A stretch of DNA of 64,000 bases, from NCBI RefSeq assembly GCF_044324875.1, contig NZ_CP172185.1; one strand, given 5' to 3'. Position numbers and translations under genes: made by a program. Origin of the DNA: Escherichia coli. GTDB lineage: Bacteria; Pseudomonadota; Gammaproteobacteria; Enterobacterales; Enterobacteriaceae. Below the pieces are notes generated by a model. The model was not told the origin of the DNA and did not search any database. It was given only the letters and a program-made list of their open reading frames with translations. Within the stretch, counting starts at the first letter, position 1. Each line of letters starts with the position of its first letter. This document shows, piece by piece, positions 2,625 to 55,524 of this stretch.

Positions 2625-4133
2625 ATGAATAAATCGCTGGTAGCGGTAGGCGTCATTGTTGCGCTAGGCGTAGTCTGGACAGGCGGCGCATGGTATACAG
2701 GCAAGAAGATTGAAACCCATCTCGAAGACATGGTCGCGCAGGCGAACGCGCAACTCAAACTGACCGCTCCTGAATCCAACCTGGAAGTGAGTTATCAAAA
2801 CTATCATCGCGGCGTATTCAGCAGTCAGCTGCAACTGTTGGTGAAACCCATTGCCGGGAAAGAAAATCCGTGGATTAAAAGCGGTCAGAGCGTCATCTTC
2901 AACGAATCGGTTGATCATGGTCCCTTCCCCCTTGCCCAGCTTAAAAAACTGAACCTGATCCCGTCGATGGCATCAATTCAAACCACGCTGGTTAATAACG
3001 AAGTTAGCAAGCCACTGTTTGATATGGCAAAAGGTGAAACGCCTTTTGAGATTAACTCCCGCATTGGTTACAGCGGAGATTCCAGTTCCGATATTTCGCT
3101 CAAGCCACTGAATTACGAGCAAAAGGATGAAAAAGTCGCCTTTAGCGGCGGCGAGTTCCAGTTAAATGCAGACAGAGACGGCAAAGCTATCTCCCTTTCC
3201 GGGGAGGCGCAAAGTGGTCGGATAGACGCGGTTAACGAATATAACCAGAAAGTACAGTTGACCTTTAATAATCTGAAAACCGACGGTTCCAGCACGCTGG
3301 CAAGTTTTGGTGAGCGCGTAGGAAATCAAAAACTGTCACTGGAAAAAATGACCATTTCAGTGGAAGGCAAAGAACTGGCACTGCTGGAAGGCATGGAGAT
3401 CAGCGGTAAATCGGATCTGGTCAATGACGGTAAAACGATCAATAGCCAACTGGATTACTCGCTAAGCAGCCTGAAGGTACAGAATCAGGATCTGGGCAGC
3501 GGCAAGCTGACTTTAAAAGTCGGCCAGATTGATGGTGAAGCCTGGCATCAGTTTAGCCAGCAATATAACGCGCAAACTCAGGCGCTGCTGGCACAGCCAG
3601 AAATTGCCAACAATCCCGAACTTTATCAGGAGAAAGTGACGGAAGCCTTCTTTAGCGCCCTGCCGCTGATGTTGAAAGGCGATCCGGTGATTACTATCGC
3701 GCCGCTAAGCTGGAAAAACAGTCAGGGTGAAAGTGCGCTGAATCTGTCGCTGTTCCTGAAAGATCCGGCAACGACTAAAGAAGCGCCGCAAACGCTGGCG
3801 CAGGAAGTAGATCGTTCGGTTAAATCTCTGGATGCGAAACTGACCATTCCGGTGGATATGGCAACTGAGTTTATGACTCAAGTAGCGAAGCTGGAAGGTT
3901 ATCAGGAAGATCAAGCAAAAAAACTGGCGAAACAGCAAGTTGAAGGTGCGTCAGCAATGGGGCAGATGTTCCGTCTGACCACCTTGCAGGACAATACCAT
4001 CACCACCAGCCTGCAATATGCTAACGGTCAGATCACGTTAAACGGGCAGAAAATGCCACTGGAAGATTTCGTTGGTATGTTTGCAATGCCGGCATTAAAC
4101 GTTCCGGTCGTACCCGCTCTTCCGCAGCAGTAA
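2625..4133 (+). CDS. ydgA: DUF945 family protein YdgA
   Basis: 502-aa ORF with N-terminal signal/anchor; matches YdgA and its position after manA. Confidence 0.9.
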   Translation: MNKSLVAVGVIVALGVVWTGGAWYTGKKIETHLEDMVAQANAQLKLTAPESNLEVSYQNYHRGVFSSQLQLLVKPIAGKENPWIKSGQSVIFNESVDHGPFPLAQLKKLNLIPSMASIQTTLVNNEVSKPLFDMAKGETPFEINSRIGYSGDSSSDISLKPLNYEQKDEKVAFSGGEFQLNADRDGKAISLSGEAQSGRIDAVNEYNQKVQLTFNNLKTDGSSTLASFGERVGNQKLSLEKMTISVEGKELALLEGMEISGKSDLVNDGKTINSQLDYSLSSLKVQNQDLGSGKLTLKVGQIDGEAWHQFSQQYNAQTQALLAQPEIANNPELYQEKVTEAFFSALPLMLKGDPVITIAPLSWKNSQGESALNLSLFLKDPATTKEAPQTLAQEVDRSVKSLDAKLTIPVDMATEFMTQVAKLEGYQEDQAKKLAKQQVEGASAMGQMFRLTTLQDNTITTSLQYANGQITLNGQKMPLEDFVGMFAMPALNVPVVPALPQQ

Positions 4134-36629: not shown

Positions 36630-37151
36630 TTACTTAATTACACCACAGGCATAGCGTTCACCGCCACCGCCCAGCGGTTTAGGTTGATCGGACATATTAT
36701 CGCCGCCAACGTGGACCATCAGTGCTTTGTCTTTGACTTCATCCAGTGATTTCAGACGAGGTGCGATGACGGCATCGGTAGCTTTGCCGTCATTATTGAC
36801 GACCAGTGCAGGCAGATCGCCTAAATGCCCGGCACCTTCTGGCCCTTCATGTTTACCGGTATTTTGTGGATCAAGATGCCCGCCTGCGGATTCCGCGGCG
36901 CTGGCTTTGCCATCTTTGGTGGCTGGCTGGCAGCTTCCTTTGGCATGAATATGGAAGCCATGTTCACCGGGGGGTAATGCTTTCAGATCGGGCGAAAACT
37001 CCAGACCTTTATCGGTTTCAGTAATGGTGACGCTACCAATTGACTGCCCAACCCCTTGCGACGTGACGAGGTTCATCTCGACTTTTTCACTGGCAGCTTG
37101 TGCGCCGGTCGCAACAACCAGCGCCAGAATGGCCAGACTAAAACGTTTCAT
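36630..37151 (-). CDS. sodC: Periplasmic Cu,Zn superoxide dismutase
   Basis: Start at internal ATG (MKRFSLAILALVVATGAQA signal peptide), 173 aa; Cu/Zn-binding His cluster. Confidence 0.9.
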   Translation of the reverse strand: MKRFSLAILALVVATGAQAASEKVEMNLVTSQGVGQSIGSVTITETDKGLEFSPDLKALPPGEHGFHIHAKGSCQPATKDGKASAAESAGGHLDPQNTGKHEGPEGAGHLGDLPALVVNNDGKATDAVIAPRLKSLDEVKDKALMVHVGGDNMSDQPKPLGGGGERYACGVIK

Positions 37152-41583: not shown

Positions 41584-44500
41584 ATGGCAGATAATCCAAA
41601 CCTTTCATCGCCCCTGCCGGACGTGTTTTCACCGGCAACCCGCGACTGGTTTCTTCGCGCCTTTAAACAGCCGACCGCTGTCCAGTCGCAAACCTGGCAT
41701 GTGGCGGCGCGAGGCGAACATGCGCTGGTGATTGCACCGACTGGCTCCGGGAAAACGCTGGCAGCATTTCTCTACGCCCTCGATCAGCTCTTCCGCGAAG
41801 GCGGCGAAGATACCCGCGAGGCGCATAAACGTAAAACCTCACGCATCCTCTATATTTCACCGATCAAAGCTCTGGGCACCGACGTTCAGCGCAACTTGCA
41901 GATCCCGTTACAGGGTATTGCCGATGAACGGCGGCGGCGCGGCGAAACGGAAGTCAATCTTCGCGTGGGGATCCGTACTGGCGATACGCCTGCACAGGAA
42001 CGCAGCAAACTCACCCGTAATCCGCCGGATATTCTGATCACCACACCCGAATCACTCTATCTGATGCTGACCTCCCGCGCGCGCGAAACGCTACGCGGCG
42101 TCGAAACGGTAATTATTGATGAAGTCCACGCGGTAGCGGGCAGTAAACGTGGTGCGCATCTGGCGTTAAGTCTGGAGCGGCTCGATGCGCTGCTCCACAC
42201 CTCAGCACAGCGAATTGGCCTTTCTGCCACTGTACGCTCAGCCAGCGATGTTGCAGCATTTCTTGGTGGCGATCGCCCGGTTACGGTAGTAAACCCGCCC
42301 GCAATGCGCCATCCGCAGATACGGATTGTCGTACCGGTCGCCAATATGGATGATGTCTCATCGGTCGCCAGCGGCACCGGCGAAGACAGCCATGCCGGCC
42401 GAGAAGGCTCCATCTGGCCATATATTGAAACGGGTATCCTTGATGAAGTTTTGCGCCATCGCTCGACCATTGTCTTTACTAATTCACGCGGGCTGGCGGA
42501 AAAACTGACGGCACGATTGAATGAACTTTACGCCGCACGCTTACAGCGTTCCCCGTCTATCGCCGTTGATGCGGTCCATTTCGAGTCGACCTCCGGCGCA
42601 ACCTCTAACCGTGTACAAAATAGCGACATTTTTATTGCCCGCTCACACCACGGCTCCGTCTCTAAAGAACAACGAGCAATCACCGAACAGGCGCTGAAAT
42701 CGGGTGAATTACGCTGCGTGGTCGCAACCTCCAGTCTCGAACTGGGGATTGATATGGGCGCGGTGGATCTGGTGATTCAGGTGGCAACGCCGCTTTCTGT
42801 TGCCAGTGGGTTACAACGCATTGGACGTGCCGGACACCAGGTAGGTGGTATCTCCAAAGGGCTTTTTTTCCCCCGAACCAGGCGTGACTTAGTCGATTCC
42901 GCAGTCATTGTAGAGTGTATGTTCGCAGGCAGGCTGGAAAACCTGACACCGCCGCATAATCCACTCGACGTCCTTGCGCAGCAAACCGTTGCCGCCGCGG
43001 CGATGGATGCATTACAGGTAGACGAATGGTAATCCCGCGTACGCCGTGCCGCACCGTGGAAAGATCTGCCAAGACGTGTTTTTGACGCCACGCTGGATAT
43101 GCTTTCCGGGCGCTATCCCTCTGGCGATTTTTCTGCTTTTCGCCCCAAACTGGTCTGGAACCGGGAGACCGGGATATTGACCGCCCGACCTGGCGCTCAA
43201 TTGTTGGCGGTTACCAGCGGCGGCACCATTCCGGATCGTGGCATGTATAGCGTGTTATTACCCGAAGGTGAAGAACAGGCCGGTTCGCGGCGGGTGGGTG
43301 AACTGGATGAGGAGATGGTATATGAGTCGCGGGTGAACGACATTATCACTCTCGGCGCTACCTCATGGCGGATCCAGCAAATCACCCGCGATCAGGTGAT
43401 TGTGACTCCTGCTCCAGGTCGTTCTGCCCGCCTTCCCTTCTGGCGTGGTGAAGGTAACGGACGTCCGGCAGAATTAGGCGAGATGATCGGCGATTTTCTC
43501 CATTTACTGGCGGATGGCGCGTTCTTTTCCGGGACTATTCCCCCGTGGTTGGCAGAAGAAAATACGATCGCCAATATTCAGGGGTTGATTGACGAGCAGC
43601 GCAACGCGACGGGCATCGTTCCAGGTAGTCGTCATCTGGTCCTCGAACGGTGCCGTGATGAAATTGGTGACTGGCGTATTATTTTGCACTCTCCCTATGG
43701 AAGACGGGTGCATGAACCCTGGGCGCTGGCGATTGCCGGGCGAATACATGCACTATGGGGCGCTGACGCGTCTGTGGTTGCCAGTGATGACGGCATTGTT
43801 GCGCGCATTCCTGACACCGATGGTAAATTGCCTGATGCCGCGATTTTTTTGTTTGAACCAGAAAAGTTGCTGCAAATTGTCCGCGAGGCGGTAGGCAGCT
43901 CGGCACTTTTCGCCGCCCGTTTTCGCGAATGCTCCGCGCGGGCATTATTAATGCCGGGCCGCACGCCGGGCCATCGCACCCCGCTCTGGCAACAACGGCT
44001 GCGCGCCAGTCAGTTGCTGGAAATCGCTCAGGGATATCCGGATTTTCCGGTCATTCTCGAAACACTACGCGAATGTCTGCAAGATGTTTATGATCTTCCC
44101 GCGCTGGAACGTTTGATGCGTCGCCTGAACGGTGGCGAAATTCAAATATCCGATGTAACGACCACTACGCCTTCGCCTTTCGCCGCCAGTTTATTGTTCG
44201 GCTATGTCGCGGAATTTATGTACCAGAGCGACGCCCCGCTGGCAGAGCGCCGGGCATCCGTACTGTCGCTGGACAGCGAGTTACTGCGCAATCTACTCGG
44301 ACAGGTCGATCCGGGGGAATTACTCGACCCGCAGGTCATTCGCCAGGTGGAAGAAGAGTTGCAACGACTGGCTCCTGGCAGAAGAGCGAAAGGTGAAGAA
44401 GGATTGTTCGACCTGCTGCGCGAACTGGGGCCAATGACCGTTGAAGACCTGGCGCAACGACATACAGGCAGCAGTGAAGAGATTGCGTCGTATCTGGAAA

Positions 44501-45297
44501 ATCTTCTTGCAGTAAAACGAATCTTCCCGACCATGATTAGCGGGCAGGAGCGTCTTGCCTGTATGGATGATGCCGCCAGGCTGCGCGATGCTCTCGGCGT
44601 ACGACTACCAGAGTCACTGCCAGAGATTTATTTGCACCGAGTCAGTTACCCGCTTCGCGACCTCTTTCTGCGCTATCTCCGGGCTCATGCTCTGGTCACG
44701 TCTGAACAACTGGCTCATGAGTTTAGTCTCGGTACTGCCATTGTCGAAGAGCAACTTCAGCAACTGCGCGAACAGGGGCTGGTGATGAATCTGCAACAAG
44801 ACATCTGGGTGAGCGATGAAGTATTTCGTCGTCTGCGTTTGCGCTCGCTGCAAGCCGCCAGAGAAGCGACACGTCCCGTTGCGGCCACGACCTATGCGCG
44901 ATTGCTGCTGGAACGTCAGGGCGTATTACCCGCCACCGATGGTAGCCCGGCACTCTTTGCCTCAACATCGCCAGGCGTTTATGAGGGCGTGGATGGCGTG
45001 ATGCGGGTGATCGAACAGCTTGCTGGCGTTGGTTTACCCGCCTCACTCTGGGAAAGCCAGATCCTGCCTGCCCGCGTACGCGACTATTCGCCAGAAATGC
45101 TCGATGAATTACTGGCAACCGGTGCGGTTATCTGGTCGGGGCAAAAAAAGCTGGGTGAAGATGACGGTCTGGTGGCACTGCATCTACAGGAATATGCCGC
45201 AGAATCGTTCACTCCCGCCGAAGCAGATCAGGCGAATCGTTCGGCGCTGCAGCAAGCGATAATCGCTGTTCTGGCTGACGGAGGTGATCAGACATGA
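41584..45297 (+). pseudogene. lhr: ATP-dependent helicase Lhr, inactivated by an in-frame TAA at 43030-43032 and a 3' truncation at the prophage junction
   Basis: ORFs 41584..43032 and 43099..45297 are in the same frame and separated only by TAA; helicase motifs GSGKT and DEVH lie in the first part. The combined length is about 1237 codons against about 1538 expected. Confidence 0.8.
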
Positions 45298-45480
45298 GAT
45301 AAATGAAGGGGGATCCGTGAGATAAATAACGAATTGGAGTGGGTTAACATGGGTTCTGGTGAACAGAACTGAAATTCTTTTCCGCTATACGATAGATAAG
45401 TCGGGCATTGAAATCATCCTTCCTGGCAACTTAGAATCGAGTTTGCTGAAACATGACCCGCAACAAAAAGGATGATTCCA

Positions 45481-50243: not shown

Positions 50244-51437
50244 TTAAACTCCTTTGACAACGTCAGCGTTGACCTGTGGAACCCCGATTTCAGCGGCCAG
50301 ATTCATGGCGGCTATTACCAGGTTACTGACGGCCAGCGGATACAGCAGGCTGACCATATTTTTACGATGACTTCCCGGATTGCTCAGGCGGGCACGTATG
50401 GCATCCACTGCGCTGGCGTCCATAATGTCCGTCAGTTGTTTACCGGCCCGTTGCAGTTTGAACGTCAGAAATTCTTCAAGGTTATTGTCCAGAGGCAGAA
50501 GTTCGACCACCTCACAGCGCTGAACGACTTCACGGACTTCCATATTGCGTTCAGACAGTTTTGTCGCCAGTTCCGGCTGGCCAATCAGCACGATGGACAG
50601 CAGTTTTTTGAAACCGGACTCCAGCTCAAAAAAGCGTTTGAGGTGTTTCAGTGTCGGAATGGGCAGACTGTGGGCCTCCTCAATCACCAGAACGTGGCTG
50701 AACCCCGCCTGGCTGCTGTCTTTCAGGACGCGATGCAACTGGCGAAAGCGGGCGTCCTGACTGCGTCTGATGCTTTCCAGTGGTGCGATGGTACTGATAA
50801 TGGCTTCGGCAATAGCTGCTGCCTTCAGGGTTTTCCCTTTCACATCGTTGTCTTCCATAGCGATGATGTATGGCTCGATAACAATTACCGGCGCATTCTC
50901 GCGGTTAATACGTTCAGTCAGGTCGCGGCGCAGCGTGGATTTACCCGCACCGGACTCACCGATGACGGCCATAAACCCACCATGACGGGCTGTCTGGTAC
51001 AGCGCCTCACGCACGTAGCGAATGTCCGGGGTGGTGAACACATCATCAGAACCCTGCATGGCTTCATCGGCGAACGGGTCACGGAAAAGACCAAACGCTT
51101 TTTTGGTTGCTGGAAATAACACCTGTTTTTTGAGTAACATATTCTCTTCCTCACTGAGGCTCGTTTTATCTGTGGTACCCGCTGTACGGGGCGTGGCCGC
51201 GCCCTGTACAGCATCAAAACTCTTCGTTGTATCAATCCCCTGACTTTCCAGCCAGGACGCAAGACGCCGGCGCACTTCTCCGGGGCTGGTGCGGGGCCAC
51301 GCGTTATGATTCACAATCTGGGCCAGCGTGGCCTCAGAAACATCGACAGCTCTCGCCGCCACCGCCTGTGGAATACGGGCCTCTTTCAGTTGCTGCTTCA
51401 GTACCAGCATGTTTCCCTCCTCAGTTGCCGTTAACAA
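50244..51437 (-). CDS. Transposition helper ATPase (MuB-like, AAA+)
   Basis: 397 aa; N-terminal HTH-like region then Walker A GESGAGKST and Walker B VLVIEEAH; start overlaps the transposase stop. Confidence 0.8.
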   Translation of the reverse strand: MLTATEEGNMLVLKQQLKEARIPQAVAARAVDVSEATLAQIVNHNAWPRTSPGEVRRRLASWLESQGIDTTKSFDAVQGAATPRTAGTTDKTSLSEEENMLLKKQVLFPATKKAFGLFRDPFADEAMQGSDDVFTTPDIRYVREALYQTARHGGFMAVIGESGAGKSTLRRDLTERINRENAPVIVIEPYIIAMEDNDVKGKTLKAAAIAEAIISTIAPLESIRRSQDARFRQLHRVLKDSSQAGFSHVLVIEEAHSLPIPTLKHLKRFFELESGFKKLLSIVLIGQPELATKLSERNMEVREVVQRCEVVELLPLDNNLEEFLTFKLQRAGKQLTDIMDASAVDAIRARLSNPGSHRKNMVSLLYPLAVSNLVIAAMNLAAEIGVPQVNADVVKGV

Positions 51438-53190
51438 TGCTGATAACGCTGCTGCGGGCCGGCGTGGTCAGCGTGGCCATGACTTCATCCAGTGCGGCTT
51501 CCGGTACGCCGTCCGGGTACTGTGCTGTTAACTGGCGGTAATGTTCCGGCGTCCAGGTCAGGCCGTCGGCGCTGAACTTATCGCGCAGGGCTTTCGCGGC
51601 CTCCACATGAGTCATGGGACGCTGTTCAGTGCGCGGTCCGCGTACGTCAGAGGCCTGACCACGCTTCGGTATACAGGCCGGAAGTGTGGCGTCATCAATA
51701 TGTTTATACGGGTCAAGCCGCCCGCCGAACGGCAGCGCCTTCGCCTTGCGTGCGGCAGCTGCATCTGCGGCGTTGTCTGTACCGGTGACCAGCGCTTCGG
51801 TTTCTTTTGCCGCCATCTGCGCCGGGGTTTCCGGCAGGGCTTTGTAACTTTCGCCAAATACCGCCGCGCCTTCAGCAAAGCCAAACTCGTTCTTTCTGAC
51901 CTCTTCGACCAGGAAGAACGTCTCGTGGCCGTCCTCACCGGTCAGAACCACCTGTGCCACATCGCTGCGCCACGGGTTACGGGTAATCATCAGTTTTTCA
52001 CCGACCAGTACGCCCGGTACCGTTGATACGTCAAATTCAGTGCCCCGGAACGAGACACGAAGTTTTGGCGTGACTTTGCGGAGTTCTGGTGCCGCCACAG
52101 CCAGTTCACGACATACCTCAACGGAAGGCGCTTTTTTCAGCTGCTCAGCAGTAATCTTCAGCCAGATATCCGTGCGGGTTTTACCGTGGCGGCTGTGAAC
52201 AGCCGTGGCGTTAAAGTGGCTGCGCCATTTCGCGGCCAGCGCGTTGAGTTCTTCCAGACTGTGAACCGGCCGGAACTTCAGACCCGGCTCCAGCTTGCGT
52301 TCGATAATGTCACGCGCCTTTTCCACCTGTCCGGTGGCGCGGGCGTTATGCGGCTTGTGCGCTATCAGGTCGATGCCCAGTGAGCGGCACATGTTTTTCG
52401 TCATACCCGCGGTGTTTGCCGAGCCGGGGTCGAGATAGAGTATTTTTGGCACGCCGTGCAGCACGTCTGCGCCGCCACGCTCCTGCATGGCGTTGATAAG
52501 CACAGAACACAGGTTCTCACCGGATTCCGCACCCGTCACATACTCAACGTAAATCCAGCCGCTGGCATGGTCGGTAATCTCGTAACTCCACACGCGGTCA
52601 CTGGCGATACGGGCAAGGTTAGCGGGCTTGTTTTTGTAGAATTTCGCGCTGTCCATCACCTGCAGCCCTTTATGTCCATTGCTCAGGTAGTAAAGCGTGC
52701 AGAGTGAGGCGTCAATCTGCCAGACATGATTGGGGTGCAGACTGGCCACTTCGGTATGCGGTGCAGGGGCATCCAGTTGTTCCGGGTGCAGGCCATAGTT
52801 ACGCAGGGCACGACTGATGGCATCTTCGGACAACGGGAAAAACTCACCGGTGGTTTCATCTGTTCTGCCTGCGGAGATAAAGCCGTTAGCCCGCAGGGTT
52901 TCCACTGCATCCGCGATGGAATAGAGACGCTTACCGTTCTTGCGGGTGGCCTCACGTAGTGTGGCAGATATCAGCGCGGCTTCGTCGCGGGTCAGGGTGC
53001 TGCGTCCGGCATCGGCGCGTTTTTTGCGTTTATCAGTCACAGAGACCTCCTTCAGCCTGCGCAGCAGAGTGGCGCGGGACATGCCAAGTTCAGCACAGGC
53101 AGCGTCGTATATTGCACCGCGTTTACCATGCCCCGCATTACGTGCCGCGCGGGCTGTTTCAACAAGTTTTTCAGTCAGTGCCGGGGTCAT
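51421..53190 (-). CDS. DDE (rve-type) transposase of the transposable phage, TnpA
   Basis: 589 aa; N-terminal HTH then an integrase-core-like region (HVWQIDASL...LYLDPGSANTA); followed by the AAA+ partner as in Mu A-B. Confidence 0.8.
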   Translation of the reverse strand: MTPALTEKLVETARAARNAGHGKRGAIYDAACAELGMSRATLLRRLKEVSVTDKRKKRADAGRSTLTRDEAALISATLREATRKNGKRLYSIADAVETLRANGFISAGRTDETTGEFFPLSEDAISRALRNYGLHPEQLDAPAPHTEVASLHPNHVWQIDASLCTLYYLSNGHKGLQVMDSAKFYKNKPANLARIASDRVWSYEITDHASGWIYVEYVTGAESGENLCSVLINAMQERGGADVLHGVPKILYLDPGSANTAGMTKNMCRSLGIDLIAHKPHNARATGQVEKARDIIERKLEPGLKFRPVHSLEELNALAAKWRSHFNATAVHSRHGKTRTDIWLKITAEQLKKAPSVEVCRELAVAAPELRKVTPKLRVSFRGTEFDVSTVPGVLVGEKLMITRNPWRSDVAQVVLTGEDGHETFFLVEEVRKNEFGFAEGAAVFGESYKALPETPAQMAAKETEALVTGTDNAADAAAARKAKALPFGGRLDPYKHIDDATLPACIPKRGQASDVRGPRTEQRPMTHVEAAKALRDKFSADGLTWTPEHYRQLTAQYPDGVPEAALDEVMATLTTPARSSVISIVNGN

Positions 53191-54450: not shown

Positions 54451-54765
54451 TTACAAACGACTACCTGAAATGACACGTTGGTTGATTTCGTTAATGCGAT
54501 CCTGTGCACGTGCCATCTCGTTACTGTGGGCCATGGCGATCTGCAGCAACTGGATGCCCGGTGCGAAACGCCCGTTTTCCAGTTTCAGGGCCAGTCCTTC
54601 TTCAATGAGGGTGTTGAGTGCCCGGTTGATGTTTGCCGGTGACTCGTGCAGTGCTGCCGCCAGTTCACCATTGGAAATACCGTTCAGGGCATGACCGCGC
54701 AGCGCTTTGAGTACCCGGAGGATGCGACTGCCGGAGCTTGAAACATTCGTCTTACTCATCTGCAT
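54451..54765 (-). CDS. Putative winged-helix DNA-binding protein
   Basis: 104 aa; SRILRVLKAL...GISNGELAAALHESPANINRALNTLIEEGLA resembles IclR/MarR-type HTH regions; AGAGG SD present. Confidence 0.5.
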   Translation of the reverse strand: MQMSKTNVSSSGSRILRVLKALRGHALNGISNGELAAALHESPANINRALNTLIEEGLALKLENGRFAPGIQLLQIAMAHSNEMARAQDRINEINQRVISGSRL

Positions 54766-54811
54766 ACCTCTTTTGCGATATGTGATAACCTTTTACAAAG
54801 AATCAAAATAT

Positions 54812-55000
54812 TCAGGCTGCCTGAGCTGTTGATTTCAGCCCCAGTTTCACGGCGATTTCATGGGATTTACCGTAACGTGCTTTGCTCTGCCCATTGAGAA
54901 CGCGGTATACCTCATTGCGGTTGTAGCCGTTTTCTTCTGCCCAGCGGGTGAAAGTGATCCCGCGCTGGCGGAAGAGAGCTTTGACTTGTTCTGCAGTCAT
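54812..55000 (-). CDS. Ner-like (Cro-analog) DNA-binding protein
   Basis: 62 aa; strong SD AAGGAG 8 bp upstream; spacing of G-T/S, NG, and KxxIAxxLG residues parallels Ner/Nlp; divergent from the repressor. Confidence 0.6.
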   Translation of the reverse strand: MTAEQVKALFRQRGITFTRWAEENGYNRNEVYRVLNGQSKARYGKSHEIAVKLGLKSTAQAA

Positions 55001-55100
55001 CGTTGTCTCCTTTGTTGATGCAATGATGTTTGCCTTATGTGTGATAGATTATGGTGCAGATTATCTCACCAGTCAACTTAAAGAGTGCAGAAAAACTCAC
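55001..55100. promoter_or_regulatory. Divergent promoter/operator region between Ner-like gene and repressor
   Basis: 100-bp intergenic region containing GTGATAGATTAT and an inverted copy AGATTATCTCAC. Confidence 0.45.
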
Positions 55101-55439
55101 ATGATCGGGTTACGTATTAAAGAAGAAAGAGAGCGTCTATCTCTTACACAGCAAGGGTTGGCTGATGCTATCGGTGTGGCAAAGAGAACTTTTATTGATT
55201 GGGAAAAAGATCGCACTTCTCCTACTGCAGTGCAGTTATCTGCACTATCAGAAATCGGTGTAGATGTTTTGTATGTAGTTACTGGGGTGCGGAGTCAGCC
55301 TGTTGTTGCACCTTATATGTCACAAGAAAAGAAAGAGTTAATGGATGCATTCGACGAGATGAGCCCCGAACAACGGAGGGCAATTCTTGAGGTCGGCAAA
55401 GTCTTCATTCAACCCAAACCAAGCAAACTCGCAGGCTGA
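55101..55439 (+). CDS. Phage repressor, HTH_XRE (Cro/C1-type)
   Basis: Start at internal ATG (MIGLRIKEERERLSLTQQGLADAIGVAKRTFIDWEKDRTSP), 112 aa. Confidence 0.7.
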   Translation: MIGLRIKEERERLSLTQQGLADAIGVAKRTFIDWEKDRTSPTAVQLSALSEIGVDVLYVVTGVRSQPVVAPYMSQEKKELMDAFDEMSPEQRRAILEVGKVFIQPKPSKLAG

Positions 55440-55524
55440 TTCTGACCTGGACAGAAAGGACAGGTGGTTGATCTGGATGCTTTCAGAAAACGCCGTCAGT
55501 AGCATGGCAGAAATCGGCGGGCTT

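Follow-up and report, generated by a model that had tools for sequence, protein, structure and literature searches.

The control region of a BcepMu-type prophage in Escherichia coli: very probably a cI-type immunity switch, with a coincidental match to the phage end

What does a nine-base sequence signify when it occurs both in the control region of a transposable prophage and at the end of the same element? The question is raised by a 64,000-nucleotide stretch of Escherichia coli DNA, referred to here as the window, and in particular by its positions 55001-55100. A sequence-only reading had described this segment as the divergent control region of a transposable prophage, and it is indeed the exact gap between a ner-like gene and an HTH_3 repressor gene. 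Both GTGATAGATTAT (55041-55052) and AGATTATCTCAC (55058-55069) are present in it, as that reading stated. The match itself is equally real: GTGAGATAA occurs exactly at 45317-45325 on the plus strand and at 55061-55069 on the minus strand, with no further copy in the 64-kb window. Two explanations had been proposed, namely a DNA-binding specificity common to operator and end, or chance. Taken together, the evidence makes it very probable that the region is a cI-type immunity switch and that the operator/end match is a coincidence without regulatory meaning.

The element is a BcepMu-type (genus Bcepmuvirus) transposable prophage in the E. coli chromosome, found in about 2% of complete E. coli genomes. 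The window carries its left 18.7 kb, inserted in lhr. An identical prophage occupies another chromosomal site in strain Ec1117, where it measures 37,726 bp and has ACTAGC on both flanks. The termini read TGATCAG... on the left and ...GCGCATCA on the right. They conform to the TG...CA pattern that the KS10 paper describes as typical of BcepMu relatives (PMC2628397), and paired subterminal repeats and a short target duplication are present as well. From 55000, the early operon extends leftward as far as the phage terminus and comprises a ner-like gene, an IclR-type HTH gene, DUF3102, the rve transposase, an ExeA-like ATPase, gam, and mor. It includes a Tn552/IS1604-like transposase with an rve domain and an ATPase with an AAA_22 domain (Pfam), with matches to phrog_310 and phrog_296, in an inverted early region. 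The Ner-like gene matches "Ner-like" genes of B3-type phages. BcepMu displays the same order of repressor, ner-like, transposase, ATPase, gam, and mor genes, and both BcepMu and its enterobacterial relatives (e.g., Escherichia phage PhiKM) transcribe an early region of ~10 kb toward the left end. Coordinates of all features discussed are collected in Table 1.

Table 1. Features of the prophage and its control region (positions refer to the 64-kb window).
Feature	Position	Strand	Sequence	Remarks
Phage left end	45285..45344	+	TGATCAGAC...	Junction with the interrupted host gene lhr
L1 end repeat	45294..45304	+	ATGAGATAAAT	Phage nt 10-20
L2 end repeat	45317..45327	+	GTGAGATAAAT	Phage nt 33-43; holds the end copy of the 9-mer
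DDE (rve) transposase	51421..53190	-		68% identity to BcepMu TnpA; only an rve domain and a sub-threshold HTH_8 match
Ner-like small DNA-binding protein	54812..55000	-		62 aa; first early-operon gene; phrog_925 E = 4e-33; weak HTH_35, HTH_31 (Pfam)
Possible extended -10 of the repressor promoter	55042..55050	+	TGATAGATT (TGaTAGATT)	Back-to-back with the Pe -10; proposed from conservation only
Pe -10	55048..55053	-	CATAAT	Promoter scan; corresponds to the first AGATTAT, within GTGATAGATTAT
O1, proposed main operator of the HTH_3 repressor	55053..55070		GGTGCAGATTATCTCACC	Fills the Pe spacer; GTGCAG-N7-CAC
9-mer, operator copy	55061..55069	-	GTGAGATAA	Conserved O1 right arm (CTCAC, + strand) plus 4 variable central bases (TTAT)
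Pe -35	55071..55076	-	TTGACT	Promoter scan
O2, proposed operator	55085..55100		GTGCAGAAAAACTCAC	31 bp from O1; abuts the repressor start codon
Repressor gene, HTH_3/XRE type	55101..55439	+		112 aa; Pfam HTH_3 E = 1.6e-7; PHROG transcriptional repressor/regulator families
O3, probable third operator	55230..55245		GTGCAGTTATCTGCAC	Perfect-arm palindrome; repressor codons 43-49 (AVQLSAL); 176 bp from O1

The left junction follows from two comparisons, one with an uninterrupted lhr and one with the same prophage inserted elsewhere. The match to host lhr ends at 45284, so the phage starts at 45285. A putative left end had earlier been proposed near 45318; that position does fall within the left-end repeats, but it is not the terminus. 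The same left end adjoins different host DNA in four other strains. The interrupted gene shows a second lesion. Besides being cut by the prophage at nt 3701, lhr (41584-45284) contains an in-frame TAA at 43030-43032 (codon 483), and it therefore appears to have been inactivated twice.

The repeats L1 and L2 are two 11-mers of the form (A/G)TGAGATAAAT. Inverted copies occur at the other end as well: read inward from the right, nt 10-20 hold GCGCGATAAAT and nt 33-43 hold GTGCGATAAAT. BcepMu has TG...CA termini and the same geometry, the two 11-mers at nt 10-20 and 33-43 being GTGAGATATTT and GCGCGATATTT at its left end and GCGCGATATTT and GCGCGATAAAT at its right end, whereas the repeat core reads GATAAAT here and mostly GATATTT in BcepMu. 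Doublets of the form G(T/C)G(A/C)GATA(A/T)(A/T)T, 23 bp apart, are kept in relatives at 58-92% transposase identity. Within the BcepMu group, the paired L1/L2 and R1/R2 repeats are presumed to be TnpA sites (PMC2628397). Because the geometry is common to the right end and to BcepMu, the four 11-mers, two per end, are probable binding sites of the Tn552-like transposase. L2 includes the end copy of the 9-mer, and the 9-mer at 45317 is thus part of a probable transposase site.

Two further sequences resemble these ends. An end-like doublet, CTGAGATAATG and GAGAGATAAAC, lies at nt ~37005-37045 of the Ec1117 prophage (L002 ~1820-1870), with its members 23 bp apart and in right-end orientation. It is located ~690 bp inside the true right end, directly upstream of an invertase-like recombinase gene, and may represent a vestigial older right end or additional transposase sites. 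The second is a ~155-bp copy of the left end (window 45294-45438; L100 2490-2650), found at 90% identity on about 105 E. coli plasmids and a few chromosomes. This copy retains L1 and L2 intact, and has different terminal bases and no phage genes. With a LysR-type gene on one side and IS remnants on the other, it resembles a solo end remnant.

Chance was the second reading proposed for a nine-base match in 64 kb. GTGAGATAA is expected 0.42 times in the window, and two or more copies arose in 7 of 100 shuffles. When the window is divided into 100-bp tiles, 19 of 640 (3%) have some 9-mer in common with the 60-bp phage end, and 9-mers from 55001-55100 are found 48 more times elsewhere in the window. 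The match was noticed post hoc and exceeds chance only marginally; a priori, it is mildly unlikely (~3%). Window counts of GNGATAAAT and GATAAAT reveal no enrichment beyond the two end sites. Chance is the reading favored by these figures, since the motif frequency in the window is consistent with it, an outcome that the sequence-only reading had itself set against a functional link.

The internal structure of the control region also required revision. GTGATAGATTAT and AGATTATCTCAC had been described as inverted, but they match at 8 of 12 bases after reverse complementation, and the repeat search returned direct repeats instead. The inverted-repeat interpretation was consequently dropped. The direct repeats comprise AGATTAT, present twice in 55001-55100 at a distance of 12 bp, and a 16-mer pair, GTGCAGATTATCTCAC and GTGCAGAAAAACTCAC, with a spacing of 31 bp.

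A promoter scan of 54700-55500 returned a sole sigma-70-like match, designated Pe, with 10 of 12 consensus positions and a 17-bp spacer (GTGCAGATTATCTCACC). Pe, a strong early promoter, is directed leftward into ner, the transposase gene, and the remainder of the early operon. Its -35 hexamer, which reads (A/T/C)GTCAA on the plus strand, is kept beside the operator in the closest relatives and in the majority of distant ones, with a weaker hexamer in some heteroimmune types. The -10 hexamer is conserved across immunity types as NATAAT. The same scan, based on the sigma-70 consensus, found no promoter for the repressor gene in 54700-55500. Conservation points to TGATAGATT, which may be the extended -10 element of a repressor promoter whose transcripts would begin within O1: relatives retain TG and TAGATT/TATATT, with any of the four bases in the middle position.

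These elements give the region the layout of a cI/XRE-type switch. An HTH repressor gene stands beside divergent promoters (Pe, recovered by the scan, and the repressor promoter that we infer), and three GTGCAG-type sites supply repeated (quasi-)palindromic operators that change with the repressor. At least five other operator types occur at the same position, each with a different repressor. The operator pattern used for searching was GTGCAGA-N4-CTCAC. In O1 and O2 the right arm is degenerate (CAC only), and we therefore infer from where they lie and from the sites of relatives that they are full dimer sites. All same-immunity relatives retain O2; in heteroimmune ones its place is taken by an own-type half or full site. 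A further candidate at 54982-54998 (TGACTTGTTCTGCAGTC, inverted relative to O2) was considered as a fourth, immunity-specific operator and rejected, as it is 5' ner coding sequence (MTAEQVK) and is kept in heteroimmune phages.

The arrangement suggests a mode of action. Because O1 occupies the Pe spacer, a repressor dimer bound to it should exclude RNA polymerase from Pe, and the transposition genes would remain silent. O2, three helical turns from O1, and O3 would probably add cooperative binding, possibly with looping, and O2 would also serve autoregulation. BcepMu likewise has an operator between the -35 and -10 elements of its early promoter; its repressor, though, is only 37% identical to the one described here, and the operator sequence differs. 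The literature search yielded no relevant account of operators in BcepMu-like prophages of E. coli. The region is an ordinary, uncharacterized cI-type switch of a known phage group.

Comparison among relatives separates the operator from the ends. In PhiKM, the transposase is 98.8% identical and the repressor 34%; the sequence is the same up to about 55039 and divergent thereafter, and the O1 position is occupied by a perfect palindrome, TGCTCATAATTATGAGCA. NRZ14408 has a 99.5% identical transposase, an identical left end, a repressor of 39% identity, and TATACACAAATGTGTATA at the O1 position. Further repressor types present ATCCCATAAATGGGAT, GGTAGAAAATTTTCAACC, GGGTAATTAATTACCC, or GGTTCAGTAAATTGAACC at this place, and in most repressor types the palindrome directly abuts the -35 hexamer (plus strand xGTCAA). 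Distant relatives of the repressor are accompanied by perfect-arm versions of O1, GGTGCAGATATCTGCACC and AGTGCAGATAACTGCACT. These patterns indicate that O1 is specific to the immunity type, and that the end sites go with the transposase and not with the immunity type.

Within the same-repressor group, the operator center varies. The arms, GGTGCAGA..CTCACC, are constant, and the center reads TTAT (the window and L009), TTAC, TTTC, AAAA, or AAAC. A pattern scan of IMG/VR returned 14 contigs with the O1 arms, one of which (L009) has TTAT. The left end of L009, the sole viral contig with this center, was not found in its available DNA. The operator region occurs in 94 E. coli genomes. Over 55020-55110, 21 of them show no difference from the window, and the other 73 lie in a band of 95-99% identity, in which nearly all of those listed differ by a single mismatch. 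All four genomes sampled from this band carry T55064C, which turns GTGAGATAA into GTGAGGTAA and abolishes the 9-mer. Strain elppa5 (L004) also has T55064C, with its left end unchanged.

The relation between operator and end is accordingly not maintained in relatives. The ends stay constant, and the operator is either replaced (NRZ14408, and PhiKM, whose record does not include the end) or point-mutated. No covariation of the O1 center with L2 was seen across the relatives compared, and the BcepMu operator region contains no end-like motif. A DNA-binding specificity common to operator and end is not supported: the match is lost in most relatives that keep the same ends, and the repressor and transposase show no sequence similarity (BLASTP, best E 6.2).

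The exchange of immunity modules has its own geography. Comparison with L003 and L005 delimits a module of operators and repressor gene, from ~55039 to ~55435, that is swapped as a cassette among phages with 98-100% identity in ner, the transposase, and the ends. Its left boundary falls immediately upstream of the Pe -10, and on the right it reaches the repressor gene's 3' end.

In the operator region, the 9-mer makes up the right half of O1, and the second AGATTAT is the non-conserved O1 center. Five conserved arm bases are thus followed in the 9-mer by four unconstrained center bases that happen to read ATAA in the minority allele. Nine bases are shared because the minority-allele center TTAT adjoins the conserved arm CTCAC.

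A functional alternative takes its model from phage Mu. The L2-like sequence in O1 could be an internal transposase site, so that the operator doubles as an enhancer, or transposase and repressor compete at Pe, like MuA at the Mu operator/enhancer. Mu offers a precedent, as its operator/enhancer is used by both proteins (PMC3820752). In addition, GTGAGATAATC, the operator copy, fits GYGMGATAAWY, a loose consensus drawn post hoc from the end sites of several relatives, and the 37.7-kb prophage holds no other internal match to it. About 0.3 such matches are expected in the prophage by chance, however, and GTGAGATAATC ends in C, which among the end sites collected occurs only in L1 of L025 (GTGAGATAAAC). 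It also lacks the GATAAAT core of the four own end sites. The motif is absent in relatives with 98-99.5% identical transposases, both in heteroimmune phages and in the majority T55064C allele, in which the invariant core GATAA is altered to GGTAA. Every end site, and the possibly vestigial internal end too, is a doublet, but no GATAA-type partner is found 23 bp to either side of the O1 copy. Operator and left end are 9.8 kb apart, compared with about 1 kb in Mu. An enhancer of this kind is therefore very unlikely, and weak transposase binding at O1 restricted to this allele deserves equally little credence.

Mu inspires a second alternative, in which the repressor also acts at the phage end. 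Recognition of GTGAGATAA in L2 by the repressor would block the transposase in the lysogen. L2 does hold the conserved operator arm GTGAG and four further matching bases, and Mu Rep has been reported to bind the Mu ends with an affinity below that of MuA (PMC3820752). Yet L2 offers a single arm: where the second (TCTGCAC) would be expected, the sequence reads ATAACGAA, a match of 1/8. The four extra matching bases correspond to the non-conserved operator center, and the same ends serve phages with unrelated repressors. Binding of ends by Mu Rep, moreover, rests on homologous N-terminal domains, and this homology is absent here. Repressor binding at the end is highly improbable on this evidence.

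The comparison with Mu reaches beyond these two proposals. Both elements are transposable phages with a divergent control region between the repressor and the ner-transposase genes. In Mu, the N-terminal domains of Rep and MuA are homologous, the operator doubles as the transposition enhancer, and Rep also binds the ends (PMC3820752). Here, the repressor is of the HTH_3/XRE type and dissimilar to the transposase, which is Tn552-like and not MuA-like; the repressor and the transposase N-terminus do not constitute homologous DNA-binding domains. The distance of the operator from the left end and the lack of conservation of the operator-end match set the two systems further apart.

Attribution of both regions to the Ner-like protein is suggested only by the closeness of its gene to the operator region. 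Among the heteroimmune E. coli types compared, this protein stays 72-98% conserved (98% in PhiKM, 73% in NRZ14408), and its site should be conserved too. The 9-mer falls instead within the immunity-specific part, which begins at about 55039. BLASTP revealed no similarity between the Ner-like protein and the transposase (E 0.76 over 7 residues). Binding of the Ner-like protein to both regions is extremely unlikely.

Coincidence thus remains the preferred reading, and the operator-end link should not be used as evidence that the repressor or Ner shares a specificity with the transposase in BcepMu-type phages. What is gained is a map of the switch, with the exact left end, L1, L2, Pe, and O1 to O3, and a view of immunity modules swapped between phages with near-identical transposition machinery. 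A bolder proposal, to which we assign little probability, is that O1 of the TTAT allele has a dual use as repressor operator and weak L2-like transposase site and, separately, that a three-operator layout with an intragenic operator may be a general, undescribed trait of BcepMu-type immunity regions. If the dual use were true, this lineage would possess a Mu-enhancer-like or autoregulatory contact between transposase and immunity switch, absent from the majority T55064C allele.

The third site, O3, falls within the coding sequence of the repressor. Chance would give about 0.008 sites of this type in the window (12 specified bases, 128 kb for both strands). The site is nearly free of synonymous variation: in relatives down to 49% amino-acid identity, repressor codons 43-46 are invariant, and the only changes in codons 47-49 are TCC and GCG in L030 and a CTA/CTG alternation, against 3-4 synonymous forms in the conserved codons nearby. 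L030 shows matching arm changes in both the upstream operator and the intragenic site. Candidate own-type third sites occur within heteroimmune repressor genes as well, as a close copy in L025 and as weaker or half-sites in NRZ14408 (L005), L026, L031, and PhiKM. O3 thus probably serves as a further operator of high affinity, and it represents a modest lead.

Lambdoid cI/Cro switches combine a small HTH repressor with immunity-specific (quasi-)palindromic operators that overlap a divergent promoter pair. Repressor and operators are exchanged as a module between near-identical phages, and an auxiliary operator acts at a distance. The region analyzed here resembles them in its HTH repressor, proposed operators over divergent promoters, modular exchange, and predicted auxiliary operator at a distance. 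It differs in having three predicted sites with 31-bp and 176-bp spacing, the third of them in repressor coding sequence, and a putative antagonist that is Ner-like.

Annotation of the repressor gene varies among strains. RefSeq lists a 339-bp form (55101-55439) in some strains, including Ec1117, and a 459-bp form (54948-55439) in elppa5, ABU 83972, and an ST131 strain. The longer form starts within ner and reads through the promoter and the operators. The short form agrees with the conservation pattern, and the 459-bp form is thus probably a start-site error.
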